The position numbers and the translations under genes are program-made. This document shows positions 12,735 through 44,565 of a stretch of DNA of 45,138 bases, one piece after another (the stretch's first letter is position 1; each line of letters starts with the position of its first letter). The stretch is from Rhodospirillales bacterium (lineage in GTDB: Bacteria; Pseudomonadota; Alphaproteobacteria; Bin95), in the NCBI GenBank assembly GCA_038143065.1, contig JAYQLI010000047.1:1-45138 (forward strand). The letters run 5' to 3'. The notes beneath the pieces were generated by a model that did not search any database, was not told the DNA's origin, and saw nothing but the letters and a program-made list of their open reading frames with translations.

Positions 12735-14383
12735 TACGAACAATTCGCGGATCAAATACAAGGCGCCGCGACTATTTCGCAACAATGGAGTTTCTCCTAA
12801 TCGTTCGGTTGCCATTCTGACCCAGCATACTCCTTCTGCCCAAATTGCGCTTTGGGGCGCTCAAATTGCTGGGGTGGCTTGTCCTATAAACCCATTTTTA
12901 AATCCCGAACATATAGCGGGTCTTATTCGCGCTGCAGATGCAGCAATTGTGATAGTTACGGGCGTTAATCAAGAACTGGATTATTGGTCAACACTCGTTC
13001 CAGCCTTGAGAAAACATGGCATAAATGTCCCCATTTTTTCTTGCGATGCAGATCAAGACAGCCCAGGCTCTGACGGCGTTTTTGAACACCTCATTTCACA
13101 GAGGGGTGATGCCGTCACACCTGAGGGAGATCATACTGCAATTGCTGCTTATTATCACACAGGCGGCACAACAGGCGCACCTAAACTCGTACAGCATACT
13201 CGTTTGAATGAGGCTCACGTCGCAATCTCGTGTGGCCTCATGCATGATCACGGTCCTGATACAGTTATGGTAAACGGATTTCCGTTATTTCATGTCGCTG
13301 GCGCATTCGTTTACGGTCTCTCAGTGTTTTCAGCAGGTGGGCAATTAGTAATTCCAGGTCTCCTCGGGATGCGAAACCAAATGTTTATGAAAACAATCTG
13401 GCGACAGGTGGAACGTTTAGGAATTACGGTAATTGGATGTGTTCCCACAGTTCTTGCAGGCTTGAAAAGTATTCCAGTAGATGCAGACATTTCATCTCTA
13501 AGATGGCTATTAACCGGTGGATCTCCTTTGCCTTCAGAACTGGCAGACGCAGCGGAAGCGCACGTCAATCGACCAGTACGCAATATCCTGGGTATGACGG
13601 AAAGTGCTGGCGCTATCGCGGTCGAACCAGTTCACGGGGAAAGAACTCCTCAGTCATGCGGATTGCGGCTTCCATTCACAGAAATAATTATTCTTGGCGA
13701 AACCAATAACGAGGTAGACCGTAATTTGGTGTTACCACCAGGAAGGACAGGAATATGTGCTGTGAAAGGTCCTAATATTGCAATTGGGTATTCGGATCCT
13801 TCTCGTAATGCTGGAACCTTCGAGAGTGATGGTTGGCTTGTTTCTGGAGACTTAGCACATTTAGATCTAGATCAGCGCCTATTCATTACAGGCCGCAAAA
13901 AAGATGTAATCATTCGAGGCGCCCACAACATCGATCCACAAATGATTGAGGATTGTTTGCTGGCTCATCCAGCTGTCGAAACCGCAGCCGCTGTTGGGAT
14001 GCCAGATGCTTATGCAGGCGAATTGCCTGTTGCATTCGTCAGTCTGTATTCTAATGAGACAATTTCGGGACCTGAGCTGATCGATTTTCTTAGGTCGAAG
14101 ATTTATGATCCAGTTGCATTGCCGAAGCGCATTGAAGTCGTTGAAAGCATACCGCTTACTCCAATAGGGAAAATTTTCAAACCAGCGCTTCGATCTCAAG
14201 CGATCAATTGGGCTATAATGTCGATTGCCGAAAAGCTTGGAATTAAAGCGCAGGTTATGGTTGATGAGAAGTTTACAGCACTAATTCATGTGCCAAAAAG
14301 AAGATTTTTCAAGGTTCAAAGACGCTCTGACAGGAATGCCAGTTAAAGTGGAAATTAATGCGATCTCTCTTACAAATAAGTGA
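12735..14383 (+). pseudogene. Acyl-CoA synthetase (AMP-binding), missing its N-terminal ~50 aa and its own start
   Basis: YYHTGGTTGAPK, FPLFHV, ILGMTE, GWLVSGDL, GRKKDVIIRGAHNIDP and LTPIGKIFK. It begins abruptly at YEQFADQIQGAA(R)LFR. A 3' frameshift probably extends it to the TGA at 14383. Confidence 0.8.
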
Positions 14384-14571: not shown

Positions 14572-14700
14572 TTCGGCTTTTGCCAATACAGCGTGGAGAA
14601 GTTTCTGATGGTGTGATGCAGCGCAAGCTCTACCGGCACAGTGTCGAACCCCGGAGTCTCCGCATAAAAACACACGAAAAAGTGTGTGTTTGGTTTTTGA
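14572..14700. repeat. Collapsed scar of the 34-44 kb integrative element family
   Basis: 14572-14638 matches 34321-34387 (inside the element's leftmost ORF). 14637-14700 matches 17363-17400 and ~44254-44325 (element right end, including ACACACGAAAAAGTGTGTGTTTGG). Confidence 0.85.
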
Positions 14701-17309: not shown

Positions 17310-17339
17310 ACAAAACCGCTACAAAGCACACCAAGTAAT

Positions 17340-17427
17340 GTGTTCTTTCACTAGGTTGTAGACACAGTGTCGAACCCCGGAACCTCCGCATAAAAACACG
17401 CATAGCGTTAGTGTGCGAAAAATTAAG
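17340..17427. repeat. Second scar of the integrative-element right end
   Basis: 26 bp identical to 44231-44256 (GTGTTCTTTCACTAGGTTGTAGACAC), then ACACGCATAGCGTTAGTGTGC..AAATTAAG as at 44331-44361. The middle segment between two ACACG repeats is missing. Confidence 0.9.
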
Positions 17428-25408: not shown

Positions 25409-27648
25409 CTAGCTCCCGGTCGAATTAACCGCTTTTAGCACCTTTTCAGGGGTGATCGGTAAATGACGAACACGAGCTCCGACCGCCGAATGCACCGCAC
25501 TAGCAATCGCAGGCAAAGGCGGTGTTATACCATTTCTCCCCACCACGCACACCATAAGGATGTCCTGGGTTTGGCACCTCAACGATCACGGTTTCAATCA
25601 TTGGCAGGTCAGACGCCAAAGGTATACGGTAATCCAAGAAGGCAGGGTTTTGTAAGCGCCCATCTTGTCCGTATACATACTCTTCGTTCAACGCCCAACC
25701 AATACCTTGTACCGCACCACCTTGAAATTGGCCCTCAACATAAGATGGATGGATCGCGCGCCCCGCGTCTTGTGCGACTAAATAGCGTAGTATTTTTTAC
25801 TCTACCAGTTTCAGGGTCGACTTCTACATCAACCACATGCGCACCGAAGCTTGCGCCAACCCCCTCTGGCAACGATTCATGGTGTCCGGAGATGGGCCCC
25901 CCTGTTTGCCCCATCTTACCGGCAATTTCTGCAATTGACATAGGAGGAAATTTACCTGCGTTAGGTCCCGCTGGTTGTACTGCGCCATCAACCCACTCGA
26001 CAGCATCTTGATCAATGCCCCACTCAAGCGCAACTCGACGACACATTTCCGCGATGGCCTGATCTGCGGCTATAATTGCCGCTTTTCCGCTTGCAAAAGT
26101 TGCCCTACTGCCATGAGTTGGTTCATTAATACCAAGCGAGCCAGTTTCGGCCACGTTCACACGAACATCTTCGTAGCGAACCCCTAAACGCTCAGCAACC
26201 ATCAGACACAACGAAGCTCTACTACCGCCCACATCTGGTGTGCCGACCGAAACCTGCACGGTTCCATCCTCAGAAATTGCCATGGAAACGGATGTTTCAC
26301 CATTGTGGTTAAACCAATATCCGGTGGCAATTCCACGTCCTTGGTTCACCCCTAGCGGAACAGACATGTTAGGATGGCCGCTAATCGCCTCAAGAACTTC
26401 CACCAAACCAATAGATCCAAATGTGGGACCATAACTTGCCACGTCACCTTCGCGAACAGCGTTTTTAAGTCTAACCCTGCAGTGGATCTAGGTTTAATTC
26501 GCGACACAACTCGTCAATCAGACTTTCCACTGCAAAAGCCCCCATTGGTGAACCAGGCGCACGATACGCAGCACATTTTGGCCGATTAGCTAAAACATCA
26601 TAGCCGACATGTTGAACAGCTGGTAATTTGTAAGGTGCAAAACAACAGTATAGCGCCATATCGACTGGTGCTCCCGGAAAGGCTCCGCCTTGCATTCGAA
26701 ACTCTGCGCGGGCGAGAGTTATACTTCCATCTTTTTTCATGCCAATCTTCACATCCAGCGACCCAGACGCTGTTGGTCCAGTAGCGCGAAAGACATCTGC
26801 TCGGCTCATGACAATTTTGACAGGACGCCCACTAGCTTTACGCGACAAAGCTAACGATAACGGCTCCATAAAAACGGTTGTTTTTCCGCCAAAGCCACCA
26901 ATTTCTGACGGTGTTACGCGTAACTGTGATGTTTCCACTCCCAATACAGCCGTACACATACGCCGAATAAACCATTGGCCTTGTGTACAAACCCACATTT
27001 CGCCCTTTCCATCTTCGCCAAGTTGGCCAACGCAGGCATGCGGTTCAATATATCCCTGATGCGTTGCTTCAGTTTTATAGTTACGTTCTAAAACCAAATC
27101 AGCGCTTGCAAAACCAGAGGCCAAATCACCGGTTCCAAATTCCATATAACGTGCCACGTTTCCAGGCATCCCATCGGGAACTGTTGCGTCTGCGACATTT
27201 TCACGAATAACAGGGGCATCTGGTTTGATCGCATCATCGACATCAATTACATGTGGCAATACTTCATATTCAACTTCGATAAGACGCGCAGCATTTTCTG
27301 CAATTAATTTGGACGTCGCAGCAACAGCGGCAACGGCATGACCGTCGTAAAGTGCTTTTCACCTGCAATTGTGTTTTCTTGCAAGTTCCAATCTTCACCA
27401 ACCAATCCTGTTGGAAAGTCAGCTCTTGTCACAATCGACTTTACACCCTCTAGCGCTTCAGCTTTTGAAGTATCGATCTTCACGATCCGCGCGTGCGCAT
27501 GAGGAGAGCGGACGACAGCACCAAACAACATCCCTGGCAACGAAAAATCTGCGCCATATCGAGCACGACCAGTTACTTTGTCTAAACCATCAGGACGGTT
27601 TGGGCGCGTACCTACTAACTTAAAGGTATTCACTTCATCTTTTGCCAT
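25409..27648 (-). CDS. Xanthine-dehydrogenase-family molybdopterin-binding large subunit, frameshifted in several places
   Basis: RPDGLDKVTGRARY, RSPHAHA, HQGYIEPH, IGG(G)FGGK, AYRAPG, VEVDPETG and FLDYRIP. Confidence 0.9.
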
Positions 27649-30328: not shown

Positions 30329-31913
30329 TCATGCAGCCGTTTTAATCATGTCAGCAGCTTTTTCTGCGATCATAATTGTTGGTGCATTGGTGTTGCCGCT
30401 TGTGAGGGTCGGCATAATAGAAGCGTCCACGACTCGTAGACCTTCTAAACCCCTAACACGCAGTTCATCATCCACGACAGCCATGTCATCGTGACCCATT
30501 TTACAGGTGCCTACTGGGTGATAAACGCTATTACAGTCTTCTTTGATATACTCATCAAGCTCAGCATCTGATTGCTTTTCAACCCCAGGCAAATACTCAT
30601 CGCCGCGAATGGCATCAAAGGCTTTTTGTGATAAAATTTCACGCGTCATTCGCAGGCCATCACGAAGAACACGCAAGTCATCTGGTACAGATAAAGTTAG
30701 GGTTCAGCTCAGGTAACTGGAATGGATCATCAGATTTTGCCATAACCGTTCCACGACTTTGCGGCCGCGAAATATTAAAAGTAAGGCATGCACCCTCGAC
30801 ATTGATGATTTCACGCCCATGATCTTTGTACATGATATTATTGAAATGCGTTTGAAGATCTGGCGCTTCAAGATCCTCGCGAGTTTTCAAAAAAGACATG
30901 ACTTCAACCCCATGTCCGGCAACTGGACCTTTCCCTGTTGTGTAATACTGGATCAAAGCAAAGGCGGCAGCATAAGGTTTAGTCTGATTCAAGAGTGAAA
31001 CAGGTTTTGACAACCCCTGCTTCACAGAACTAGCAAGGTGGTCTTGTAAATTACGACCCACACCCTTCAATTCATGAACCGTGTTCACACCAATGCTTGA
31101 AAGATGCTCTGAATCCCCGATGCCTGAAATTTGAAGCAGATGCGGAGAGTTGAATGTTCCACCTGACAAAATAACTTCTTTGTCAGCATAAATTGTTTTT
31201 TTCTGACGACCCTGTATGAACTCGACGCCAACCGCGCGCCCAGCTTTCACTAAGATCTTTGAGACCATTGATTTGGTGTAAAATGTGAGATTTTTACGTT
31301 TTTTAACTGGTGTTACGTAACATCGAGAGACACTTGAGCGAATACCGTCACGAACTGTACCATCACAGGGCCCCACACCGTACTGCTCACCCCCATTTAG
31401 GTCTTCATTGTACGGTATACCCATTTGCAAGCAGGCATCTCGATAGGCAACACAAGGCTCCGCCAAGATGTCATTGCGTGTCGTGGCCAAAGGCCCATCA
31501 AAGCCATGAACATCTTCGTCGCCTCCGCCACCCCAATTCTCTGCTCTCTTCATGTAAGGTAGAATGCTCTGGTAGTCCCAACCTTTATTGCCTAGCTGGG
31601 CCCAATTATCATAATCACTGCGGTGACCTCGCGTGTAGATCATCCCATTTACGGTTGTACATCCACCTACACTTTTAGCGCGCGGCACAAACATTACGCG
31701 ATCATTAACATGCTTTTGTGGGACAGTGTAATAGCCCCAATCCAACTGTAATGTTTGCATGAGTCTGAAGTATCCCATTGGCATGTGAATCCACGGACTT
31801 TTATCCCAATCACCTGCCTCGATTACGGCGACTTCTACGTCAGGATTTTCACTTAAACGGTTTACTAAAACACCACCGCCAGAGCCTGCTCCAACAATTA
31901 TATAATCGGGCAT
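30329..31913 (-). CDS. GMC oxidoreductase (choline/alcohol dehydrogenase-like), frameshift near 30680
   Basis: DYIIVGAGSGG, NGMIYTRG, VGRNLQDH, YHPVGTCKMG and GNTNAPTIMIAEKAAD. Confidence 0.92.
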
Positions 31914-32348
31914 ATCACCTCCCTAAACGCGAAAACTATACTCGCAACATGCTTGAACTGTAGAATCTAATGTTCCACTTTTACTAACGTTGAGTTTTTC
32001 ATTGACAAATAGCTTAGTCAATACTTAATTTGTTAAATACGAATAAATTTGTTTAAAATTTAATTCTAAAAAATCTACTTCTGTCTTGGTGGGTAATAAT
32101 CGCAAGATGGGCCTAAGATTAGCCGCTAAGGTTTCGCATTTGTGCAAATCAAGTGGCAAAAATTGAGATTTTTGGCGTAAACTAATAAATAGACTTGCCA
32201 ATGCAGTATTCTTTAATACCCTATTGATGTATCTACTGGAAAAATATCTTGTAACAATTTTTTTTATTTTTTAAGCTAATCGCTACGCATATAACGAAAT
32301 TGAACTATGGTTAGTTTTGAAGTCGTAAAATTGGGGAGTGCGGCTCAA

Positions 32349-33124
32349 ATGGCTAAAAGCACAAGAGGTATCCAATCAGTTGAAGTCAGCGGCCGTATTA
32401 TTCAAGCGCTGATTGCTTCAGGCAGACCAATGATGTTGAAAGATATGGCACGTGAAGCCGAACTCAAGCCAGCGCAATGTCACGCATACCTGACCAGCTT
32501 GAAAAATATAGGATTTGTTCACCAAGACAGCTCGACTGGACTGTATGCTGCGGGAGCTTTAGCACTTGACTCGGTGTTGGTTGGATGAAAAGCGATCCAT
32601 TGATGTCAAATTTGATAATGAAACTAAAGGCCGTAACCGAAGAGTTAGGTGTGATGTCAATAATAACTGTCTGGGGACAGTTTGGCCCCACTATCGTTCA
32701 TATTTATGCCGGCTTGACGCAAGCAGCGCTAAACCTTCGTCATGGATCTTCATTTTCGGTTACAGGTTCAGCCATAGGACATGTATTTGCGGCGCATTAC
32801 GAAGTAGACAAAGTTTCGTCGCGTATAAACGCGGAACTATCAGGCATTGGTGAAAACATTGCACTTGGAGAACAAATGTCACGCGAAAACCTCCATATCA
32901 CAATCCGAAAAATAAAAGCGAATGGTTATTCGATTGAAGAAGGCAGATTTATTCCTGGACTCAATACTGTGGCAGTACCGATATTTACAAACAATCAAAA
33001 GCTATTTGCAGTTGCGTCCTTAATCGGAACTCCCGACAAACTTTCTGTGGCGGTCAACAGTGCACCAATTAACAAAATGCTTAACCTATCTCAGTCGATA
33101 TCAAATTCTCCACAAACAGAATAG
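32349..33124 (+). CDS. IclR-family regulator 1, frameshift near 32570
   Basis: RGIQSVEV, AQCHAYLTSL, VWGQFGPTIV, TGSAIG and IPGLNTVAVPIF. Confidence 0.9.
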
Positions 33125-34126: not shown

Positions 34127-34543
34127 CTACCCCATCATTTTAAGCGCCGCTGCTTCACTTGCTCTGATAAAGTCCTGTGCGCGATACCGCCAATCTAGTT
34201 CGCCTAAGCGGAGTTCACTGTTGAGAGGTTCGTTGATATTGCGAGGGATTTTCACACCTGCAAAACCAAACACAGACATCTCCTCTGGCGTGAGATAACT
34301 GCGCACAAAAATCTCTTGGTTTCGGCTTTGCCAATACAGCGTGGAGAAGTTTCTAATGGTGCGATGCCGAGCAAGCTCAGCTGGCAGTGCTAATCTTAAA
34401 TCCCCTCCGTTTGTGTTTGTGTGGTGTGCGTGGATATCATTCCTCTTATTGAAGTGTTCAATCACTGTTTCAAAGAAGCCCTGTACCGCACGCGGGGCTG
34501 TGGCAATTTTTGCATAAAAGTTTTCTCGGCCGAGTTCGCCCAT
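34127..34543 (-). CDS. Hypothetical protein (138 aa)
   Basis: Intact ORF with RBS-like AGGTG. A diverged internal fragment is duplicated at 14572-14638. Confidence 0.65.
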   Translation of the reverse strand: MGELGRENFYAKIATAPRAVQGFFETVIEHFNKRNDIHAHHTNTNGGDLRLALPAELARHRTIRNFSTLYWQSRNQEIFVRSYLTPEEMSVFGFAGVKIPRNINEPLNSELRLGELDWRYRAQDFIRASEAAALKMMG

Positions 34544-34673
34544 ATGTCACCTAATTCGTATTTAACTATGCGTCTTTTGACATAGAGCAACTTAGAACAA
34601 ATTCACTTACAGGCGCCTAAAACTGCACAGTTTTGGCTGAGTTTGCGGCGTAATTCATTGCGGGTGTTGGATT

Positions 34674-35036
34674 TCAACTGCTACCCAGTGGTGCCTGCGC
34701 GCCCTGCGGCTTGAGCCTATCATAATCTGCCTGTGAGATTGCTGTGCTGATCGCTGAAGGCATTCCCGTTGTGGTGTCTTGTGTCTTTGGTGCGTTTGCA
34801 GATTTTGGAATGGAGAGCGCCGGTGGTTTTGATTGCCCCACAGTCTTTGTGGGTTTTGACTTACTCTTCGCTTTGGCGTCTTTGGTCTTAAGCCGCTTAT
34901 CCAGCGCGTTGGCGAGAAAGCTGGCTGTATTTGCGAAGAGTTTTATGTCGTCCACCGCCTGCTCAATACTGGTACTTTTTGCGCCCTTCTCAATAACATC
35001 AATGAGCTTTCGCATTTCTTCTCTAGCATCATCCAT
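34674..35036 (-). CDS. Hypothetical protein with a helical N-terminus and a K/P/S/T-rich tail
   Basis: RBS GAGG. It starts 12 bp after the upstream gene's stop. Confidence 0.65.
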   Translation of the reverse strand: MDDAREEMRKLIDVIEKGAKSTSIEQAVDDIKLFANTASFLANALDKRLKTKDAKAKSKSKPTKTVGQSKPPALSIPKSANAPKTQDTTTGMPSAISTAISQADYDRLKPQGAQAPLGSS

Positions 35037-35048
35037 ACTGTTTCTACC

Positions 35049-35375
35049 TCATGCACCCATGCGCTCTGGTTGCTTCCAGATTGCATGGGACTGTTTGGCG
35101 ATTGCGCTTTCACAGAGATCATTCAGGCGATCAAATGTAACAACCAACGTCTGGTGGGCTGTTTGGTCACTCGATCTCAACTGGTCTGCATAATACCCAA
35201 GTTTGTGGGCACACACACTCAGCACAGCAACACTTGGGTCTAGGTCATGATATCGCAGCGTTCTGATGTACCCCTCGCTGCGCCCAAGCCAGCCATTACA
35301 AAACTCGGGTGTTGAACTCACCACACCCGCCGCCTTCAGCTCGCTCTGTATATGTTCCAATAGTCTAATACTCAT
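35049..35375 (-). CDS. Hypothetical protein, probably DUF6626 family
   Basis: Strong RBS AGGAGAGGAG. The pattern EFCNGWLGRSEGYIRTLR is recalled as DUF6626; I have not searched it. Confidence 0.6.
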   Translation of the reverse strand: MSIRLLEHIQSELKAAGVVSSTPEFCNGWLGRSEGYIRTLRYHDLDPSVAVLSVCAHKLGYYADQLRSSDQTAHQTLVVTFDRLNDLCESAIAKQSHAIWKQPERMGA

Positions 35376-35396
35376 AGATCTCCTCTCCTTGCATGT

Positions 35397-35405
35397 GTAT
35401 TTATC
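35397..35405 (-). promoter_or_regulatory. GATAAATAC motif, T4-late-promoter-like, upstream of the DUF6626-like gene
   Basis: GATAAATACACATGCAAGG, ending 21 bp before the ATG. It aligns with GATAAATACATGTGAAGG at 38997. Confidence 0.35.
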
Positions 35406-35459
35406 TTTGGAACATAGGCTGGTGCCACAGTGGGTGGAGAGACTGTGTCTAGGACAGAG

Positions 35460-36244
35460 TCAGCGCTTATCTCTCAGTGGAAACTGCCCCTTGCCCACAT
35501 TCTCAATGTACTGCTCAGCAATGCGCAGGTGGCGCTGCACAGCCAATTGCTTTCTGCGATAAATCTTCTTTTCGATTTTTGTAGTTGAGAGGTTGAGGCT
35601 GCGTCGAGACTGAAGCGTTTCTCCATCCACAACGTGATTAATACGCAGCCCCACCAGATCAGCCAGCTCTGCGTCTTTGAAGTTTGGATGTCGCTGCTTA
35701 GCGTCCCATACCAGCAAATGCTCATGCAGGGCGGAGAGAATGGTTTGTAGCCACTGGGTATTTGGCACGGCTGGGCATCTTCTGGCGCGCTGCCTTTATA
35801 ATTTGAGGACGTACCAACGCTTGAACTGGCGCGTTGTGATCGCCAGTGATGTTTCAAGGGCACCTTTATGATCAGCGTGTGATCATCCCCCTGCTCTCCT
35901 GCTACAGCTGCGCTTACCTGCCTAATGGGTGGCTCTGCAAAAATCCAATTGTGCGCACGCCACCAATCCCAGAATTCACCGGCATACACATTGCCAAAGT
36001 CCTCATAGAGTTTGGCATAACGTCCACGCCCACCCTGCGCACAGGTACGTTTATAACCTTCATGGCGTCTGAGATACTCCCACCAATAGTAATAGACTGA
36101 ACATTGCCAGGGTTCTGCTTCGGGAAAAGGCGGTGGTGGCAGCTTTCTTTTGCTGCGTTTTGGGTCTTTCACAGGCCACGCATAAGCAAAATGCAGGGGA
36201 CGGTCTTTAAACTTTTCCATAAAATCAGTCTCTAATGATGCCAT
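35460..36244 (-). CDS. Hypothetical protein, possible FseA-like (DUF6499/DUF2285-type) activator; several single-base indels at 35730-35860
   Basis: YYWWEYLRRHEGY near the N-terminus. The repaired C-terminus reads LHEHLLVWDAK...DAELADLVGL...QRHLRIAEQYIENVGKGQFP. Confidence 0.5.
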
Positions 36245-36353
36245 ATATGTATTACTTTAATGCTTTTTCTATCGGCATCAATATTTCTCCTAAGTTTATC
36301 TCATCGACGCGGCAATCCCGCCGTACAGATCAAACTTTATTAGGAGAACACAC

Positions 36354-37169
36354 ATGACAAACCTAACACAAAACACAGCACCAACTTTGACATCCGTGAT
36401 TGATGAGATGATCGCAAATCGCATCAAATGGCAGGAAGGCACCTATGCTGCCAGCAATGCAGAGCTTTATGCACTTCTTGGAGATTGCTTAGAGCTGTTT
36501 AACAAAGCCAAAGACGCCAAAACTGGTTTGGCCAAAGCCATTACAGAGCAATTAGAAGAGCGTGGCATTGCCTATAACAGCTCAACAAGCCTAACTCTCA
36601 AGATTGTGCGCTTGGTCTTCTGTGCTCCAGGTATGGAAGAGAAGATCGTGCACCGTGCCTTCACCTATGCAAAGGTCCTAAAGATTGCCTCTGATGCAGG
36701 ACAAACTGGAGATACACTGTCCAAATATATCACAGACAATCATGGCATTGATGAGATCCGTCGCGCCAACAAAGACGGTCTGACAGAAGCACAAAAGTCA
36801 AAGCTGAACCAAGACTATGCAGAAACGGTTCTAAGTGACTCTGTATCCTTAGTTGATATTGATTTGGTAGATGCCCTGCAGCCCAATGACGGAGAGCAGT
36901 TCAGCCTAGCCCTGATCCGCCGCAATGCAGATGGAACTGGATCTATTGTATTCGGCACCCCCAATGTAGCTGCGATCAAGACTGTGCTTTGCCTAGCGGG
37001 TGGAGAACTCAAAGACGTGGCCAAGCAAGAAGATGAAGCCTCTGTAGCTGAGCGCAGTGAGCAAATGCGCGCGATCAATACGCAGCGCCTTTCACAAGAG
37101 CTGGCAGCCAAACAGGGCTTTGCACCCAGCATCACTGTCAGTGCCGTTGAAGCAGTCCCAGCTGAGTAA
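36354..37169 (+). CDS. Hypothetical protein (271 aa, largely helical)
   Basis: Long intact ORF with RBS TAGGAG. No motif recognised. Confidence 0.8.
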   Translation: MTNLTQNTAPTLTSVIDEMIANRIKWQEGTYAASNAELYALLGDCLELFNKAKDAKTGLAKAITEQLEERGIAYNSSTSLTLKIVRLVFCAPGMEEKIVHRAFTYAKVLKIASDAGQTGDTLSKYITDNHGIDEIRRANKDGLTEAQKSKLNQDYAETVLSDSVSLVDIDLVDALQPNDGEQFSLALIRRNADGTGSIVFGTPNVAAIKTVLCLAGGELKDVAKQEDEASVAERSEQMRAINTQRLSQELAAKQGFAPSITVSAVEAVPAE

Positions 37170-37189
37170 TCACAACATCCCATAACAGT

Positions 37190-37214
37190 GTGAGCAGCCC
37201 TATAGGCTGCTCAC
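37190..37214. other. Perfect 10-bp intergenic hairpin
   Basis: GTGAGCAGCC-CTATA-GGCTGCTCAC, with no U-tract. Confidence 0.7.
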
Positions 37215-37240
37215 CGTTAAACATTGAAAGGAACACACAG

Positions 37241-37931
37241 ATGAAGTTTGAGCACAAACATAGGCCGCACATGCTTGCAGGACATCATCTTCGCTGATGC
37301 GCATGTAGCCGGAGTTATTCAGGATACTGCTTCAGGCATACGTGATAATCACATCATTCTACATGGTCCCCGTGGCAGTGGAAAAAGCGAGACGGCTCGT
37401 TTGCTTCAACAGGCGAGACTGGGCTGCGAGGCGCAAGGCGTCTTTGCGGACCCCATCCATGCCAAGACCTACGAGCACGAGAGTTTTGCACCCATCCTCA
37501 CAACTTGGAACTGGCAGATCATGGCAGGGGCCCGAATGGGCTGCGTGGTGATTGATGAGGTCGACCAGTTCTCAACAGCCATGCAGCAAAAGCTGCGTGC
37601 TTTCGTGGATCGCTACAGCATGGGGCTTATTCTCTGCACCACAAACAATCTTCACGCTGTTGATCAGCCGCTTCAAGATCGCTGCCGCTGTCTAAAGATC
37701 ACTTACCCAACTATTGAGCAGTGGGCACCACGTGCACGGGCAATTCTTGCCAAGCAAGGTATTGAGCTCACTCAACAGCAGACCTGTGATCTTCTAGAAG
37801 GCTTTGAGAATTCGGGGCGCAAGATGATGGATTGGCTGGAAGATACAGTGATTGAGATCAGGCAAAACTGCACACGTTTACTTACAATCTTAGATCAGGA
37901 GCGAGAAAATGCAGTATCGTATAAACGCTGA
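37241..37931 (+). CDS. Clamp-loader-clade AAA+ ATPase (RFC small subunit / T4 gp44-like), lacking the collar domain
   Basis: ATG at 37241 after RBS AAAGGA gives MKFEHKHRP (EKYRP-like box II; one indel near 37268). Walker A GPRGSGKS, Walker B VVIDEVD, sensor-1 TTN and SRC-like LQDRC are present. Confidence 0.8.
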
Positions 37932-38421
37932 TGGCTTCTACTATTTACCAGGCACAGGACGCAATCTTGCTTTGATCTACTCATTTGAAAACATCAATGT
38001 CGCTACTGAGCAAATGGGAATTTTGCTTGAAGAAATTGGAGACAGCTTGTTTCAACTCACAGGCAGTAAGTTCTTTCGCGGCGCCAGTGCATTGGAAAAT
38101 GCGCTTAAGTTTAATTTTTCAAGTGCAATTAATCGATATCTTGCCGTAGATGAACGTTCTGATTTTGTTCAAAGTTTCAATCATATTGTTTGCTGTTCAG
38201 CTCTATACTGGAACTTGCAATGGTTAGACACTGACTTTGCAAACGAATTGCCGGCTTTAGATCGTGAAGACGAATTAGAACTCATTCGTGAATATTTTTA
38301 TCGAAGCCATGAAGCCGGTTACACATCCAACTTGGTCACAAATATTACGAAACATCAATTGACATATTTTGCTAGACCAGAACTCGAAGAAATCTACAGA
38401 AAGCAAAATTGCGAGGAATAA
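37909..38421 (+). CDS. Hypothetical protein (170 aa)
   Basis: RBS AGGAG; overlaps the ATPase 3' end; more AT-rich than its neighbours. Confidence 0.65.
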   Translation: MQYRINADGFYYLPGTGRNLALIYSFENINVATEQMGILLEEIGDSLFQLTGSKFFRGASALENALKFNFSSAINRYLAVDERSDFVQSFNHIVCCSALYWNLQWLDTDFANELPALDREDELELIREYFYRSHEAGYTSNLVTNITKHQLTYFARPELEEIYRKQNCEE

Positions 38422-38439
38422 AATCTAAAGAAGGAAACA

Positions 38440-38985
38440 TAAAACCGAATAAACTTCGTTTCTTCTGAAGCATCAGCTAACGCTTCGCTTGATGTCTTCG
38501 AATTGATTATTTCGAGATTGCAAAGAGCAGTCAGATCAACGCCTAGTGAGGCGTTGATCTCAACAGTTAAACATGAGTTTGCATGTCGCCTGTCAGGCTA
38601 TTTTACTGAACCAAATTGGAAGAGCAGGTTTTGCGATCATCTCTATTACCAGCGTTCACGCACGCATAGGACCCAAACAGCCAGGCACTCCTACACGCTA
38701 GCGGGTCTCTTGCGAGGTTGTCATCCGCTTCACTTTTTAGATGGCGTTCCATCTCAACCATTCCGACTTTGCAAACGTCATATCACTTCCGATGTTTCAG
38801 GATAAAAGGATGTCTCTCCAGTGGGATTGCGTTTAAGGCATCCTGCCAGCAGCAGGGTAGTGCAAAGAAGACGAACAACGGGCAGTTCGTTTTATGCTGA
38901 CGTTTTCAAAGTACATCACCACAGCGCAATTCCATTCGGCGCGCCAACCTTTATCCCATTTGTATAAGCCTAAGTCTTGCCTTCA
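38440..38985 (-). ncRNA. Candidate ~550-nt structured ncRNA and/or replication-origin region
   Basis: No credible ORF. There are at least 7 stems, including a 10-bp helix that pairs fully only on the minus strand via three G-U pairs (38662-38671/38689-38698), a CUC-GCAA-GAG GNRA loop (38707-38716), long-range pairing 38800-38809/38948-38956 and a perfect 12-bp stem at 38533-38560. Confidence 0.55.
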
Positions 38986-39299
38986 CATGTATTTATCAAT
39001 GTGCGCAAAAAGCTCGCAAAAATGGTTTTGATGCCGCCGGTTATTTGTTTTTTGGACGATCTGATCGCGATATAGGCAAAGGTTCTGTTCTTAGACTGAT
39101 CAAGTGGTTTTTGAACCAGATGTACCTGCCCTCTTTCAGAAAGAGTGACGAAGAGCTCTTTCAACATACTATTCGAACCACTTATGCCCACGTGATACAC
39201 AAACTTGGTTTTGGGAGCCGCCTTTTGAACATCTAAAACATATCGACCTAATTCGTCGTGCCGGGGGCGCTCTTTCGACCAGTCGATCATATCCAGCAT
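38970..39299 (-). CDS. Hypothetical small basic protein, phage-like
   Basis: RBS AAGGAG. The pattern FVYHVG...GQVHLVQK...FAYIAIR resembles small alphaproteobacterial phage proteins (recalled, not searched). Confidence 0.6.
   Translation of the reverse strand: MLDMIDWSKERPRHDELGRYVLDVQKAAPKTKFVYHVGISGSNSMLKELFVTLSERGQVHLVQKPLDQSKNRTFAYIAIRSSKKQITGGIKTIFASFLRTLINTCEGKT
38989..38997 (-). promoter_or_regulatory. GATAAATAC motif directly 5' of the candidate ncRNA
   Basis: Same extended motif as 35397-35405. Confidence 0.35.
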
Positions 39300-39446
39300 G
39301 TCATCAGCTCCTTAATCAATATCTTGAATCAACCAAGCCAATAAAACGTCTTCACGCGCAAAAGGAAAGTATCATAGTGAGATATTTTTCGGTCGTCCAA
39401 ACGAAGCCTCAGAAAGTAAACTGAAAGAAAGTTGTTTGGATAGGCT

Positions 39447-39920
39447 ATGGCATCTCTCAAAACCCTCACGTTTAAAACCATAGAGCGCAATCGGCGCGCG
39501 AGTGAGATTATAGCACGGCGCCAAAAGCTCATTGTGAAGCTAGAGGAGCAGCAGAAGGTTCTAGAACACCACGTGAAGAGTGAGCAGTATGTCGTGACCG
39601 GTCCAAAGTGGATGCGGAACAATCACGGTGAGCGTGTACTTGTTGAGAAGCAACGTGTTATTCGTCCTTGGTTCTTTGAGCGCGACGGTGGCTATTACCT
39701 GCAGGTTAAATATGGCACGCGCATCCTATCTGTTGATGGTGTGCACAATGCGATCTTTGTGGAAGCGATTTCAGATCTCAGCGGGAGTGCTTTCGAGCTG
39801 ATTGCAGCCACAGAGGCCGGTGAGTTGGATGCAGCTATCGCGAAAGCTTTGAAGCCTAAGCCGAAGTATAAGCCCGGGGCAGCGAAGTCTGCGGACATCC
39901 ATCGGCTTAAGCGGTCTTAG
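39447..39920 (+). CDS. Hypothetical protein, probably DUF6641 family
   Basis: The pattern RRQKLIVKLEEQ...W...GERVLV...RPWFF...VKYG...NAI is recalled as DUF6641; I have not searched it. Confidence 0.65.
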   Translation: MASLKTLTFKTIERNRRASEIIARRQKLIVKLEEQQKVLEHHVKSEQYVVTGPKWMRNNHGERVLVEKQRVIRPWFFERDGGYYLQVKYGTRILSVDGVHNAIFVEAISDLSGSAFELIAATEAGELDAAIAKALKPKPKYKPGAAKSADIHRLKRS

Positions 39921-39982
39921 GTCTTTAAACAAAAGTTTCACGATCCCATATACGTCACATCAATCACGGTGAGAGGTGAGTT

Positions 39983-40255
39983 ATGGAAGAGTTTAGAACA
40001 AGTGCGCGTGGACAGGTTTCGGTCAGGGGCGCGCTCATGCTGGTTTTTGGTCTTTTGCTTAATCTCGCAATAACCCTAGTAGGGGTGTTGGCCTTTATTC
40101 AATTCTTATGGATGCTAGTCACAACAGATCGGAACCAATTTATTGCTGACATCAGCTCTGATCTGTCTCGTTGGATGTCTGCAACTGTTCAATTCCTTCT
40201 TGGACAGAGCGAAGAAAAACCCTTCCCTTGGTCATCCCTCAAATATGCGCGCTAA
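39983..40255 (+). CDS. DUF4389-like small membrane protein
   Basis: Two hydrophobic helices, IQFLWMLVT..RN and terminal SEEKPFPW. RBS GAGGTG. Confidence 0.75.
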   Translation: MEEFRTSARGQVSVRGALMLVFGLLLNLAITLVGVLAFIQFLWMLVTTDRNQFIADISSDLSRWMSATVQFLLGQSEEKPFPWSSLKYAR

Positions 40256-40678
40256 GATTAAGGTCGCTGTTCTTTTATTGTTTGGGGTCTTTTGGCCGAT
40301 CACATTATTTGCCCAATCAGAATTAACTGGGCAGATAACCCATGTACGGGATGGCGATACAATCGAAGTTGGGGATATTGCGATTAGGCTCAACGGGCTT
40401 ACCTGCGACGAACGCGGCACAGCTTTAGGAGATCGCGCTACAGCGTACCTCCGATTACAAGTACCAGGTAAAACAGCAACCTGCACCTTAAATGGTGAGC
40501 TCACCTATGACCGCCTTGTTGGACGCTGCGCGACAGAGGACCTCGGTGATATTGGAGTGCATCTGATCAAGCAGCAGCTGTGTGGACGCTGCGAGAGATA
40601 TGATCCTGAAGGTGAGTATGCTCAAGCACAGAGAGATGCAGGACCCTATGCTGGGGCAATGCAGAGCATTGCAGATAG
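40245..40678 (+). CDS. Secreted thermonuclease (SNase/TNase family)
   Basis: Signal peptide, HVRDGDTIEV, IRLNGL..DE and TYDRLVGRC. It probably ends at TAG 40678 after one indel; the provided ORF runs on to 40847. Confidence 0.85.
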
Positions 40679-40701
40679 CGCACGGCTCAAAATTTTATAC
40701 T

Positions 40702-40926
40702 TTATTCAATTGAAAGATTATCAATCATCGGAACAAGACGCTCACGAACCCAGCTATAATCGGGCAACTCATCTATATATGCGACAATCTCATCAATTTG
40801 CTCACTTGATAAATCATCTAAAGAATCAACTTTGTAAAAATCCGTGATACTGTCACTGACCCAAGCTTCAACTTCATCAACAATACGATCTTCAAACTTG
40901 TTCCACTTATACAATTCAAAGGCCAT
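40702..40926 (-). CDS. Small acidic hypothetical protein (74 aa)
   Basis: RBS GGAG; very D/E-rich. Confidence 0.6.
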   Translation of the reverse strand: MAFELYKWNKFEDRIVDEVEAWVSDSITDFYKVDSLDDLSSEQIDEIVAYIDELPDYSWVRERLVPMIDNLSIE

Positions 40927-41014
40927 TTTAATTACTCCACGTTTAATTTCTGTTAATGCTCATGAAGCTAGATCTAACTAAGAGAAAGTCATTTTAATCG
41001 TACGTACTAAAATC

Positions 41015-41036
41015 TCATAGAACATACTTTCTATGA
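41015..41036. promoter_or_regulatory. Putative tyrosine-recombinase crossover site I
   Basis: TCATAGAA-CATACT-TTCTATGA: perfect 8-bp inverted arms with a 6-bp spacer, upstream of the small recombinase. Confidence 0.6.
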
Positions 41037-41124
41037 TGTTTTCGCGTATCCCACTGATATCATTGAAGATCATTTCGGGGCAGATTTCGGTCGTCCAACC
41101 AATACCTCAGACTTTATAATAAAA

Positions 41125-41147
41125 GCATAGAAAAGCTTATATTATGC
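41125..41147. promoter_or_regulatory. Putative tyrosine-recombinase site II (degenerate), next to the recombinase start
   Basis: GCATAGAA-AAGCTTA-TATTATGC shares the CATAGAA arm with site I. TATAAT lies at 41115-41120. Confidence 0.45.
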
Positions 41148-41159
41148 GAGGGTTCACTC

Positions 41160-41725
41160 ATGCGCCAAGCTCAAACACTGACAGATGCCCAACTGCGTCG
41201 TGTATTACACTATTGCCGTACTAGACGTCATCCACTGAGAGATGAGACAATCATACTCACAAGTTTTTATGCAGGCCGCCGCAATAGAAATCGCCGCCTT
41301 AAAATATGCAGATGTCTATGATGAGCAAGGCGCTGTACGAGATCAGTTCACACTGCGCGCAACACAAAGCAAAGGGGGCAGAACACGCACTGTATACATT
41401 GGAAGCAAACTGGAAGCGCGCCCTCAAAGAATACCAAGCCAGTATTGTTAGGCACAGAGAGGATATGCCACTCTTCCCCAGTCAAAAAGGTGGACACTTC
41501 TCAGCAAACACCATGTGCCAGCTGTTCCTCGATATCTACAAGGCCTGTGGTCTGAGAGATGCCTCCAGTCACTCAGGGCGGCGCACCTACATCACCAGGC
41601 TTGCCAACAAAGGAGTTGGTGTGCGGTTGTTGGCAGAGCTCGCAGGACATTCGCATATTTCGACCACCCAGAGATACATTGATGTGAATGTAGAGCAGTT
41701 GAAGGAAGCAGTGGAGCTACTCTAG
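41160..41725 (+). CDS. Small catalytic-domain-only tyrosine recombinase (~190 aa), two frameshifts
   Basis: MRQAQTLTDAQLRRV...FYAG(L)RAIEIAAL...SKGGRTRTV...SSHSGRRT...LAGHSHISTTQRY; the full R-K-H-R-H-Y set is present. Confidence 0.88.
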
Positions 41726-42953
41726 CAGCGAGCTTTCATATTCATCTTTACTGAGCTCATATCTCTTACCTGTCAGCATGTCTTTCTTCAGTCGTGGCGT
41801 AAGATGGCTGTAGTGACGCTCAATCATACCAATGGAAGTGCCCATCTGTATGGCGAGAGCATGTATATCCATACCGTCGTTCAGCAGTGCGAATGTCGCG
41901 TAGGTGTGGCGGAGGCTATAAAGCGTTCGATTAAGACCAGTACGTGGGCATTTGATCAGCCCACTTTCTTTCATAAACGCGCGGAAGGTTTGGTGGATGT
42001 TCTTGCTTACAGTCCCATCGGGCAATCTGAACACAGGTAAATCCACACGCTCTTTTAGGAGCTGCTCAAAGCTCATGTGATTGAGGTCTTCTGCACGCTC
42101 ATGGATGCGTTTGAGATAGTTGATCGTACCACTGCGGCAGATGATATCTCGCCTGCCCGTCTTACCAGATACACTCATCTCCAAATATTGAAGATCATTT
42201 TCTTCAAACAGTGTGATGTGTTTCCAATTGAGATTCAGTGCTTCTGTCCCATGCCGCATGCCTGTGTTGGCCAATATCAGCACATAGTCCCGCATGAGGT
42301 ACCGCATATCTGTGGGCTTGCCCGCCTTACCCTGCGTTGATCCAGTGCGGCAGTTTACGGATCATTGTGGCGTATTCTTCACGAGTGAAGTCTGACGGCG
42401 TTCGCTCTTCTCACCTTTGTTTACAAGCATTGGCACATTCTTGTGCCAGAAAGCCACGGGCCACTGCTTCATCAAACACACGGTTCATTGCAGAGTTATG
42501 TGTGTTCAGCGTACTTGCCTTTGGCTCACTGCCCATCTTTGCGCGCCGCCACTCATAGAAGCTTTGTACCTTCTCGTAATCAATGGAGGTCACGTACTGG
42601 GAGCCCAAAGAAGGGAATGAGGTAACGCTCAATACACACGATGTAATCAGCATAGACTTTCTTGCCCAATCCAGCATCCAGCTGTTTGCGCATGTCAGTA
42701 ATTGCAAGCCGCGCTACATCTGAGAACTTCTTGGTAATCACAGGAAGGTCATTCTTATTTCGGAACTTGTATTCTAGATAGGTGTCACGGGCCATTTCTT
42801 TGGCTTCATTGAGGTCTTTCTTACCAGTGCTGATGCGTATGGGCTTACCATCAATGCTGAATGCAGCCTGCCATCTTTTACTGCGTTCGCGACGATACAC
42901 ACGGGACCTTCGCCGTCCAAGATCATCACAGTATCATCTCGCAAGTGTCGCAC
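41717..42953 (-). CDS. Phage-type tyrosine integrase (~410 aa) with N-terminal arm-binding domain, several frameshifts
   Basis: VYRRERSKRWQA...RISTG, NTGMRHGTE, GKTGRR, YSLRHTY and QMGTSIGMIERHY. GTG start after AAGGAG. Confidence 0.9.
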
Positions 42954-42971
42954 GCCAATCTCCTTTAACAA

Positions 42972-43018
42972 ATTATATGGCTCTCAACACCGACAAGTCT
43001 ACCAAAGTGTGTTTTTGA
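42972..43018 (-). promoter_or_regulatory. Sigma70-like integrase promoter with an adjacent arm-type repeat
   Basis: TAGACT-N18-TATAAT on the minus strand. GTGTGTTTTTGA at 43007-43018 is identical to 44314-44325. Confidence 0.55.
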
Positions 43019-43111
43019 TTGTAGGAAAAATATTTGAAAATAGATCTCAATATCTTGTTGGTAATGTGAATTGGAGAAGCTCTATTCTACCCCTAATTCA
43101 ACACGTAAACC

Positions 43112-43806
43112 TCAATTATTATTAATCATTAGAAAAATAATAATAGCTGCAAGCGCAAAACCTGAAAGCGAAGAAAACTTTGCCTCTCAACTCTACTTCT
43201 TTCAGCTTGTTGTTGCGCTCTCGTGTTCCTCCGTTTTTGTTTATCGCGGAAAAAACTCAGCATGCGCCTCCTTCTTTTCAGCCCTTGAATATTTCGCCTT
43301 TCTACCCTTGCAAAAGAACTTTTGATAAATTTTCCTCAGCAGTAATTATTTGTAAATTATCAGGATGGAACCCCACCTGCAAGGGCCGGATATGATCAAC
43401 GTGGGTGCGCTGTGCCCGTTTCTTTTGTTTTTCTACGGGCCTCTCGATAAATTTCATGAAGTTGCATCTCTTCCTGCCTTGATAATTTGACACGTCCTTC
43501 TTTTAATACGTTTGTCTTCAAATTCTTTGAGATACGTGTGCAAACAGGACATCCACTTTCGGTCACTTTTCGCTCTGTTAGATGACCTTTTTTACACTTT
43601 TACCACCACACATCCAAACCATTATGCTTGCGGACGCCTGAGAGAGCGCAAAAGATTTTGTAGGGATACTTTCTGAAATAATCGTACCTGTTCGCTGATC
43701 TCTCTACTAACCGGTCTTCCGCCCGTTTCTTTTTGGTCTTCTTACTTTCTGGATGCCATTTATCATTCCTATAATAAAAGCCAGGCTTCGTAGGATATTT
43801 AGTCAT
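43112..43806 (-). pseudogene. HNH endonuclease (phage type), multiply frameshifted, possible C-terminal TM helix
   Basis: HVDHIRPL...HPDNLQIITAEENLSK. Upstream pieces in other frames are CKKGHL and SGCPVC. The start MTKYPTK follows GGAG and the tail is SGFALAAIIIFLMINNN*. Confidence 0.55.
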
Positions 43807-44230
43807 ACAAATCTCCGTAGTAATCGCTACTACATGAGACCATAAAAATATTCCTACCAGTCCTATCACTGTAAAAAATATTATTACTTTTTTCATCGGG
43901 GAGGATGGCTCATTGGAGTTAAACGCAAGTTCGATTGGCAAGCATAATAAATCCACCACCAATGAAAGAAACAATTGCTGATGCAATGACTGGCATTATG
44001 TAATTTTATGGATCCCAAAATCTCCACAAAAGCGACCAAAAAATGCGGAAATATGCACGATCCATCTAACAGCCAACTAAATTGTCATCGCTCATAAATA
44101 ATTCCTGAAATCCTTTAGGACATTAAGTAACGTGCATGTGCAAATTACACTTCAATATAAGCACCATAGGACTACACATGCATGACTGCAGAAATAATGT
44201 CTGAAAGCTGTTATAAAATGATTAAGAACC

Positions 44231-44379
44231 GTGTTCTTTCACTAGGTTGTAGACACGAGTGTCGAGACCCTGCAGGATCTCTCCCCTCAAACACACGAAA
44301 AAGTGTGTGTTTGGTGTGTTTTTGAATCCCACACGCATAGCGTTAGTGTGCAGAAATTAAGCCATTGATATTGTTTTGG
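44231..44379. promoter_or_regulatory. Element right-end region with arm-type repeats and an IHF site
   Basis: GTGTGTTT repeats and a hairpin at 44291-44325. TAAGCCATTGATA at 44358-44370 matches the IHF consensus YAANNNNTTGATW. Confidence 0.7.
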
Positions 44380-44396
44380 AAAGTGGTGCCCGGGGC
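44380..44396 (-). repeat. att core, copy 1 (duplicated tRNA 3' end, probably tRNA-Leu)
   Basis: AAAGTGGTGCCCGGGGC; the minus strand reads GCCCCGGGCACCA, ending in ACCA. IHF matches lie on both sides (44358-44370 and 44417-44429). Confidence 0.75.
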
Positions 44397-44548: not shown

Positions 44549-44565
44549 AAAGTGGTGCCCGGGGC
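44549..44565 (-). repeat. att core, copy 2
   Basis: Identical 17-mer, 169 bp from copy 1. IHF match TATCAATAGGTTA at 44614-44626 and tandem TGTTATAC at 44659-44677. Confidence 0.75.

Follow-up and report, generated by a model that had tools for sequence, protein, structure and literature searches.

PICI, P4-like elements, PLE and PICMI are marked by a replication initiator of their own (primase-helicase, Pri-Rep or RepA_N), by genes or signals for packaging or capsid redirection with occurrence in phage particles, and by induction through a helper phage. Bacterial RNAs that are both large and elaborately folded are uncommon, and the majority have proved to be ribozymes, guides or scaffolds of ribonucleoproteins. 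Here, a ~10 kb tyrosine-integrase island was analysed that lies beside 3' fragments of a tRNA-Phe gene at 34.1–44.4 kb of contig C47 (GenBank JAYQLI010000047.1; assembly GCA_038143065.1, Rhodospirillales bacterium). The whole contig, 45,138 nt in length, is referred to as the window. Among its open reading frames (ORFs), no satellite replication initiator and no family of the terS, ppi, sid or psu type was found with Pfam, NCBIfam and PHROGs, in line with an earlier note on this DNA, made from the sequence alone, which had seen no match to the hallmarks of PICI, P4, PLE or tycheposons.

The island has a syntenic core consisting of an integrase (Int), a second recombinase (rec2), a DUF6626 protein, the WEYLRR protein, the orphan p271, a collar-less gp44/RFC-like ATPase and a DUF6641 protein. 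About one third of the genome loci containing p271, and very many metagenome contigs, additionally carry a large structured RNA, and the RNA and the DUF6626 gene each lie behind the same GATAAATA box. Together with the mechanism proposed in the Discussion, these features lead us to regard the window, with moderate confidence, as containing one copy of a family of small, site-specific islands of marine Rhodobacterales that insert next to tRNA-Phe by way of a conserved att block and are not self-transmissible.

Gene order and synteny of the island

Proteins of the 34–45 kb region were taken from the ORF listing and scanned with Pfam, NCBIfam, PHROGs and PADLOC. From left to right, the island comprises a 138-amino-acid (aa) ORF, a 120-aa ORF, the genes for DUF6626, WEYLRR (WWEYLRRH; in two frames), p271 and the ATPase, a 170-aa ORF, ~0.5 kb in which no ORF is convincing, an ORF of 109 aa, the genes for DUF6641, DUF4389 and a signal-peptide protein of 200 aa, a small tyrosine recombinase of which only the C-terminal half is read, an integrase spread over three frames, an AT-rich stretch of 1.2 kb and two copies of AAAGTGGTGCCCGGGGC. 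All four scans were blank for relaxases, type IV secretion systems (T4SS), capsid, terminase, primase and Rep proteins. The earlier note had described an integrative element that is equipped with an integrase, a second recombinase and a lone ATPase of the clamp-loader type and in which genes for transfer, virions or a recognisable Rep are absent, and this description was upheld. Its two nucleases were not recovered: one thermonuclease-like motif was seen by eye in the product of 40245–40847, and no second candidate was found.

Species genomes were scanned with a p271 profile, which yielded 15 loci in HIMB11, Planktotalea, Nereida, Marimonas, LSUCC0031 and metagenome-assembled genomes (loci are designated by L numbers, with HIMB11 being L024). 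The ATPase gene was adjacent to p271 in all of them, and DUF6626 (14 loci), DUF6641 (13), rec2 (13), Int (12) and, detectably, WEYLRR (8) accompanied the pair, so that the synteny of the homologs, a test set beforehand, was borne out. The HIMB11 genome carries an intact twin of the island with 91–95% nucleotide identity and the same gene order. Relatives bounded by tRNA-Phe measure ~10–13 kb, and an intact tRNA-Phe gene lies beyond Int or beside the att block in L025, L026, L029 and L033. As anticipated for full-length relatives, conjugation and virion families were absent from the ten largest unassigned ORFs of three of them, which encode helicases (SNF2, HNH-DEAD), UPF0149 or nothing recognisable; a weak match to T4SS-DNA_transf (3.1e-4) covers only the P-loop of a DEAD helicase.

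The distribution of p271 is sporadic (5 of 301 genomes sampled from the family of HIMB11, two of these with 2 and 4 copies). No matches were obtained in PLSDB plasmids for the element (megablast), p271 (tblastn) or the RNA (blastn), in 50,697 phage records for DUF6641, DUF6626 or the RNA, or in 2.9 million viral contigs of IMG/VR for the RNA motif (23 nt), the p271 profile or the ATPase; absence from such collections is weak evidence. Two more family members, with a different gene order, were noticed in the bin to which the window belongs (G000), one on contig C33 (L018; 82.4–89.4 kb) and one on contig C8 (10.4–15.6 kb). The C33 copy has no RNA, and a restriction-endonuclease-like 224-aa ORF and a copper-resistance cluster lie nearby; the C8 copy includes the RNA.

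A large structured RNA

The long non-coding region of the island, described earlier as structured, was strongly confirmed by covariation against controls to be a real structured RNA (~38520–38960, minus strand). It is ~470 nt long and has 12 supported helices, an invariant loop GUAAUAGAGAUGAU(A/C)GCAAAACC at ~38628–38650 and a 3' hairpin at 38534–38559. The DNA of positions 38511–39030 is 74–77% identical to that of loci whose p271 is only 42–50% identical, and the invariant 23-nt loop stretch was found on at least 118 metagenome contigs. For the alignment, 95 full-length instances were collected from metagenome contigs, 45 of which were kept at <92% identity. With these 45 sequences, RNAalifold gave 61 pairs in 12 helices, with compensatory changes in 41 of the 61 pairs. 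Paired cells amounted to 96.6% versus 83.9% after shuffling, with 375 versus 106±13 double-change cells, and the covariation was 0.433 versus 0.200 (reached in 0 of 500 shuffles), with slid-partner controls at 0.06–0.09. The RNA was assigned to the minus strand because G-U cells (312) far outnumber A-C cells (6); pairing was 98.1% on the minus strand of the window and 86.3% on the other. Folding of the single sequence was uninformative alone (z = -1.58; 3 of 100 shuffles fold as well).

The RNA is previously undescribed. It had no match in Rfam at the gathering score (whole window) or at E≤1 (38300–39500), and the excerpts returned by a literature search contained no description of it. A model limited to 180 positions of the RNA (R1) detected it in the window, on contig C8 of the bin, in 5 of the 15 genome loci (L024, L025, L032, L034 and L035) and in 2 of 151 genomes of the family of HIMB11. 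In L018, L026–L031, L033 and L036–L038, it was detected neither by R1 nor by a full-length nhmmer profile run with every filter disabled. Among recognised genes, rec2 lies closest to the RNA on the 5' side, in divergent orientation (32 of 47 loci), and the commonest 3' neighbour is DUF6626, which was the nearest recognised gene, co-oriented, at 34 of 63 loci. At least one gene of the family was present on 105 of the 116 accepted metagenome contigs bearing the RNA.

When the island and HIMB11 were searched for sites complementary to seven conserved segments of the RNA, the six long ones hit the RNA locus alone, and the remaining 8-mer was too short to be meaningful. The RNA leader (~38960–38985; alignment columns 40–110) contains 2–5 AGGCA repeats at a spacing of ~10–12 nt, in numbers that differ from one relative to another; they may serve as iterons or as binding sites for a protein. 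Two GC-rich metagenome contigs (L046 and L119) have only the 23-nt invariant loop sequence in common with the RNA and were excluded from the RNA model and from later counts.

A box shared by the RNA and the DUF6626 gene

The window contains three copies of GATAAATAC, where 0.15 would be expected. Two of these lie inside the island, in front of a gene and of the non-coding region as had been claimed: one at 35397–35405 (minus strand), 22–30 nt before the start codon of DUF6626 and followed by AAGGAGAGGAG, the other, in the form TTGATAAATACAT, at 38989–38997 (minus strand), 40–60 nt before the first conserved block of the RNA. The motif is also conserved, with ATAAATA present upstream of 60 of 72 DUF6626 homologs and most others having GCTAAATA (printed sequences, read by eye), and GATAAATA being present in 68 of 76 unique 5' regions of the RNA. 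A Shine-Dalgarno sequence is located between the box and the start codon of DUF6626.

The box begins with G (or GC) and not with the T of TATAAATA, its forms being GATAAATA or GCTAAATA, and a TTG lies 13–26 nt upstream of it in 42 of 70 RNA promoters. The site before the RNA was not called in a promoter scan of the E. coli type. The box may be a host-type -10 element or a site for a factor provided by the island or a helper.

Core proteins

The tyrosine integrase (41717–42900, minus strand; Pfam Phage_integrase/Phage_int_M) has 411 aa when intact and is spread over three frames in the window. Its HIMB11 copy is intact, and the at least nine Int loci of the bin are all interrupted. The rec2 gene (41009–41725, plus strand) codes for a tyrosine recombinase that consists of the catalytic domain only (188 aa when intact, frameshifted here); it matched Pfam Phage_integrase with 1.2e-15 for the C-terminal ORF in the window and 1.7e-27 for the intact HIMB11 copy (profile positions 2–171). 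Both recombinases have the PF00589 catalytic domain with R..HxxR..Y, the translation of rec2 reading HSGRR and GHSHISTTQRY, and rec2 has no N-terminal SAM-like or arm-binding domain. It is the best-conserved protein of the family. A cis-motif, TTTCGGTCGTCCAA(A/C)CGA, stands before both DUF6641 and rec2 in the window (39387–39427 and 41085–41125) and in L024 (13036–13062 and 14078–14104), and its reverse complement is also found upstream of the RNA in L032.

p271 (271 aa; 36354–37169, plus strand) is intact and always followed by the ATPase gene. Its 169 homologs at E≤0.001 come from Rhodobacterales and marine metagenomes and bear no functional names save two evidently automatic JGI labels. An AlphaFold2 (AF2) model of p271 (pLDDT 70) had no fold match in PDB or BFVD at E≤0.001. 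The ATPase gene (37184–37931, plus strand; ORF 37248–37931) encodes 227 aa in the window and 240 aa in HIMB11. Its product matched phrog_168 'clamp loader of DNA polymerase' (1.4e-19) and, far below the cut-off, the RFC small subunit NF009067 (5.2e-10), and its best PDB match was T4 gp44 (3u5z_B, 9.7e-11), barely before RFC5 (1.7e-10). The translation contains GPRGSGKS (Walker A), VIDEVD (Walker B), CTTN (sensor 1) and, after sensor 1, an SRC-like DRCR. The gp44 and RFC chains, 319–340 residues long, are aligned only up to about residue 170–221. Because all matches end at about residue 178–220, the protein is devoid of the C-terminal collar domain, which holds the pentamer together in clamp loaders, and represents a lone AAA+ ATPase of the clamp-loader clade.

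The DUF6626 protein (35049–35375, minus strand; Pfam PF20331, 2e-37) was modelled with AF2 as an all-helical protein with five helices (pLDDT 91.2). No PDB fold matched it at E≤0.001, the top hits (E ~0.5–3) including DNA binders of the helix-turn-helix type and the Avd protein of diversity-generating retroelements. L130 was left out of the DUF6626 alignment, having an in-frame stop. The DUF6641 protein (39447–39920, plus strand) was recognised by Pfam PF20346 (2.7e-6) and phrog_31551 (2.9e-13). The gene for WEYLRR (35460–36244, minus strand; 262 aa when intact) is split into two frames (ORFs 35474–36244 and 35460–35768). All 269 homologs of the protein are unnamed or 'hypothetical', no Pfam match was obtained even at E≤5, and the sole lead is PF20109 Trans_reg_dom, present on 14% of a neighbouring Atlas cluster.

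Insertion site and borders

The AAAGTGGTGCCCGGGGC repeat corresponds to the last 12–14 nt of roseobacter tRNA-Phe(GAA) followed by CTTT. Of the tRNA att repeats that the earlier note had described, these 3'-terminal fragments (..CCCCGGGCACCA, then CTTT) were verified as two copies, both at the right end and on the minus strand (44380–44396 and 44549–44565), but neither an intact tRNA (zero in the whole window by ARAGORN) nor a repeat at the left end was found. In metagenome contigs, tRNA T-arm sequence follows after 44395. Between Int and tRNA-Phe lies a conserved att block (block 'X'; 44224–44380, plus strand) with the core GTGTGTTTGGTGTGTTTTTG at 44305–44324; it measures ~125 bp in the family, is present in 8 copies in the bin and has a very high metagenome depth. 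The 9.6 kb element of HIMB11 is enclosed by two direct copies of the block, 9608 nt apart. L025 and L033 have an intact tRNA-Phe gene ~60 nt from the block, in the same order of Int, att block and tRNA-Phe as in the window.

Int and the att block are separated in the window by a 1.2 kb AT-rich insert (43020–44223), which holds a membrane-like ORF of 128 aa (43600–43986, minus strand). The insert is peculiar to this copy: the element of HIMB11 has none, and metagenome contigs of X1, X5 and X15 join 43019 to 44224 via 16 other letters. Two further joints were each seen on single contigs from two DNA studies, one resembling an empty site (34477 to 44277) and one leading back from 44256 through 25 other letters to 34553. 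Both are compatible, as weak evidence, with excision or tandem copies (an empty site in the first case, a circle or a tandem in the second). Mapping of the borders with nine genomes of the bin's genus was rejected, as no DNA was common to either flank and the taxonomy of the contig differs from that of the bin.

Source of the contig and frameshifts

The window is the whole of contig C47 in the 52-contig bin G000, which is made up of one contig of 2.86 Mb (C35) with an ORF density of 0.83–0.87 and small contigs with low densities (0.31–0.82). Between positions 200 and 12732, the window shares 96% identity with a contig of Rhodobacteraceae bacterium HIMB11. From the 2.86 Mb contig, a sample of 15 kb showed 66–76% identity to the bin's own genus and, in a few genes only, 65–72% identity to HIMB11. 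The order of the bin comprises 37 genomes, HIMB11 not being among them, and C35 belongs to another family than C47. By these affinities, C47 is HIMB11-like roseobacter DNA that was binned with an unrelated chromosome (chimeric bin). A scan of the 36 other genomes of the bin's order with R1 gave zero matches, which is irrelevant given the true kin of the contig. Since C47 is mis-binned, the bin's Int loci, at least nine in number, probably represent variants of the island within a population and not copies in one cell; the HIMB11 genome has one Int and one RNA.

Compared with HIMB11, Int differs by 76 synonymous and 9 non-synonymous codons and 6 indels, rec2 by 50, 4 and 5, and WEYLRR by 39, 9 and 3, respectively, and p271 differs by 36 synonymous and 7 non-synonymous codons and no indels. 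None of the four genes contains a stop that arose by substitution. Short-read (Illumina-type) metagenome contigs restore missing bases, namely an A after 35815 and a G after 35857. Metabolic genes of the contig are likewise split or fused (25735–27648, 30329–31913, 32307–33124 and 11839–14346), the affected set consisting of a xanthine-dehydrogenase-type large subunit (three ORFs), a GMC oxidoreductase (two), an IclR protein (two) and a LysR protein fused to an AMP-binding enzyme. Consensus indel errors are the probable cause here as well. It is very probable that the frameshifts in Int, rec2 and WEYLRR are errors of this kind and not decay, the most likely source being a low-coverage long-read consensus, and the window copy would therefore probably be functional. 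The case is cautionary, as the appearance of gene decay and of islands in several copies can arise from a chimeric bin combined with consensus indels.

Elsewhere on the contig, a ~60-nt sequence at 17339–17401, 14637–14694 and 167–230 had dozens of matches in the HIMB11 and L025 genomes (80–97% identity) and has the appearance of a short repeat dispersed through these roseobacters.

Variable ORFs and cargo

The leftmost ORF (138 aa; 34127–34543, minus strand) matched no known family (Pfam, NCBIfam, PHROG and PADLOC blank). Homologs with 39–94% aa identity adjoin p120/DUF6626 at 11 loci (among them L025, L026, L028, L029, L032, L033, L036, L083, L096 and L101), and others do so with a gap. It is a frequent companion of the left end that may fall outside the recombining unit, a point on which metagenome contigs joining the att block straight to 34553 bear. 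p120 (120 aa; 34674–35036, minus strand) is intact and conserved downstream of DUF6626; 25 synonymous and 10 non-synonymous codon differences separate it from its HIMB11 counterpart, and homologs occur in several loci. The family scans were blank for two variable ORFs, one of 170 aa (37909–38421, plus strand), which is unmatched in HIMB11 DNA, and one of 109 aa upstream of the RNA (38970–39299, minus strand), which is present in HIMB11 and L025. Some metagenome contigs skip 39026–39386.

The cargo consists of a DUF4389 gene (39983–40255, plus strand; score 2.7e-20), the gene for the 200-aa signal-peptide protein (40245–40847, plus strand) and a 74-aa ORF from the ORF listing (40702–40926, minus strand). 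The signal-peptide protein shows a thermonuclease-like DGDT...RL.G motif by eye and matched phrog_18798 (function unassigned; 9.4e-7); no match was obtained in Pfam, NCBIfam or PADLOC or by sequence in PDB. The cargo segment (39983–40926) is common to L025 and not to HIMB11, which has a tRNA-Met there. A tRNA-Met(CAT) gene was seen inside the island, between DUF6641/cargo and rec2, in L024 (13575–13651), L025 (12527–12602) and L037 (16198–16274), and it is missing from the matching place of the window (~40660–41010).

Discussion

In the mechanism that we propose for this island family, Int would integrate and excise the island at the att block, and WEYLRR would serve as its transcription activator. 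p271 and the ATPase would act on DNA and replicate or maintain the excised circle by recruiting replication proteins of the host or of a helper. The RNA would form a ribonucleoprotein with rec2 and/or DUF6626 that controls recombination or copy number, and the island would spread via a helper (a phage or another mobile element), vesicles or transformation. The family represents an undescribed island backbone in one of the main bacterial groups of the ocean, and its pair of an orphan and a collar-less ATPase hints at an unrecognised maintenance or replication module. The RNA itself is a new large RNA with strong covariation that is common in coastal and marine metagenomes and tied to a defined gene set, and it is directly testable because a single intact copy is present in the cultured strain HIMB11.

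It is conceivable, but very improbable, that the RNA, possibly with DUF6626, supplies the DNA recognition or synapsis that rec2 is missing, which would make rec2 a predicted RNA-assisted tyrosine recombinase and the first of its kind. The position of rec2 as the divergent neighbour (32 of 47 loci), its conservation, which is the highest in the family, and the single-stranded, invariant loops of the RNA agree with such a partnership; the presence of rec2 in family members devoid of the RNA and the lack of complementarity between the loops and the island ends count against it.

Several observations weigh against the mobile-island interpretation as a whole. The core proteins p271, WEYLRR, DUF6626 and DUF6641 have no informative relatives in sequence or fold, and no function was assigned to them. 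Family scans revealed no recognisable origin, Rep, primase or excisionase of the element. At the left end of the window copy, no tRNA-Phe fragment, real tRNA-Phe end or att-block core was found, and tRNA-Phe is only a stump of 12–14 nt; because the left end has no repeat copy, the left border is not fixed (34127 versus ~34553). The joints are single contigs, the short side of one comprises only 23 letters, and the back-joint is indistinguishable from a tandem. The RNA has no place in 10 of the 15 p271-bearing genome loci and in the C33 copy and is therefore not essential to the family. The data from RNA libraries are limited to contigs, which cover the RNA but also the rest of the island, give neither strand nor ends and may stem from DNA carry-over; their depth is therefore no evidence of a discrete transcript. 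The frameshifts, finally, could be real.

This last point leads to the reading that the window copy is a dead remnant, decaying by frameshifts and stranded without a left att site and an intact tRNA. It would account for the three frames of Int, the frameshifts in rec2 and WEYLRR, the interruption of every Int locus in the bin, the missing left repeat, the tRNA-Phe gene cut to 12–14 nt twice and the 1.2 kb insert that parts Int from the att block. Once corrected for frame, however, the genes are under strong purifying selection without nonsense substitutions, housekeeping-type metabolic genes on the same contig are equally split, the low ORF density is confined to the small contigs, and closely related metagenome contigs are free of the indels, all of which makes decay unlikely. 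The earlier note had instead proposed a candidate satellite of T4-like or other large phages. In such a satellite, the GATAAATA boxes would be late-type promoters served by a phage gp55-like factor and a sliding clamp, the gp44-like ATPase would plug into or poison the clamp loader of the helper, and the helper would replicate and package the element. T4-type late promoters have TATAAATA at -10 and no -35 element, and some marine T4-like phages reportedly use NATAAATA in place of TATAAATA. The box is kept across the family, stands at a -10-like distance (22–30 nt) from the start of DUF6626 and was not called as sigma-70 by the E. coli-type scan, the ATPase has T4 gp44 as its closest relative of solved structure and a clamp loader as its best PHROG, and transfer genes are absent from the island. 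Over RFC, though, gp44 leads by a trivial margin, and the first T of the late promoter is not kept in the box. The TTG upstream of the box in 42 of 70 RNA promoters fits an ordinary host promoter. The GCTAAATA variants are close to the alphaproteobacterial housekeeping -10 element GCTANAWC. No terminase, capsid-remodelling or packaging gene is present, the p271 model has no fold match in BFVD, and the phage records and IMG/VR gave no matches for DUF6641, DUF6626, the RNA, p271 or the ATPase as searched. Any link to T4-like or other phages is unsupported: although the homologs are syntenic, ten ORFs of three relatives hold no conjugation or virion family and the motif is conserved, the mechanism is left without positive support, and we consider it improbable.

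An anti-phage defence island, with mobility being secondary, was rated just as improbable. Here, the RNA with DUF6626 and rec2, or p271 with the ATPase, would form a sensor-effector system, and the truncated clamp-loader subunit would act as a decoy against phage replication. Small tRNA-linked islands often bear defence cargo and large RNAs participate in some defence systems, a collar-less subunit could not build a normal pentamer, and the cargo of relatives includes an SNF2 helicase and an HNH-DEAD helicase. Against this stand the PADLOC scan, in which 0 of 10 proteins matched at E≤0.001, and the position of the candidate genes, which belong to the constant backbone near Int and not to a variable cargo slot.

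Comparison with known systems

The mobile-island family that we favour resembles tRNA-integrating islands and 'hitcher' elements in its P4-type layout with Int beside the 3' end of a tRNA gene, displaced tRNA fragments, traces of tandem arrays, small size, sporadic distribution and lack of transfer genes, whereas its backbone of rec2, DUF6626, WEYLRR, p271, ATPase, DUF6641 and RNA matches no island family found in the literature. With phage satellites (P4-like, PICI/cfPICI, PLE, PICMI, tycheposons and the marine VEIMEs) it shares its size, an integrase, the tRNA-type sites of some of them, a marine host and, as proposed here, dependence on a helper. It differs from them in having no recognised primase/helicase, Rep, AlpA- or Stl-type regulator, terminase small subunit or capsid-redirecting genes and in being unmatched in virome and phage collections. 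In the parts of the VEIME paper (PMC9618062) covered by a term search, Rhodobacter, Roseobacter, HIMB11 and tRNA are not mentioned. From integrative and conjugative elements (ICEs) and integrative and mobilizable elements, the family is set apart by the absence of a relaxase, coupling protein or T4SS from the window and from ten ORFs of three relatives.

WEYLRR is reminiscent of the FseA-type activators of ICEs (Trans_reg_dom PF20109/DUF2285) in its N-terminal W-W-E-Y-L-R-R-H, which we take to resemble the YxWEFLRRN of that family, and in the PF20109 domain found in 14% of its neighbouring Atlas cluster. It differs from them in having neither a Pfam match (E≤5) nor a DUF2285 domain, and no target excisionase gene was seen. 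The island ATPase has the Walker A and B motifs, sensor 1 and SRC-like arginine of clamp-loader AAA+ proteins (T4 gp44, RFC small subunits, DnaX/HolB). Unlike these, it comprises only 227–240 aa, ends after the lid with no collar, and stands alone with no clamp or polymerase nearby, always paired with p271.

Like GOLLD, ROOL, HEARO/omega RNA and the bridge RNA of IS110, the island RNA is long and multi-helical, has invariant single-stranded stretches, is confined to a mobile element and lies adjacent to a recombinase. It differs from these RNAs in having no Rfam match at E≤1, in the lack of complementarity of its long conserved segments to the island ends and in its partners, which are a tyrosine recombinase reduced to the catalytic domain and a DUF6626 protein.

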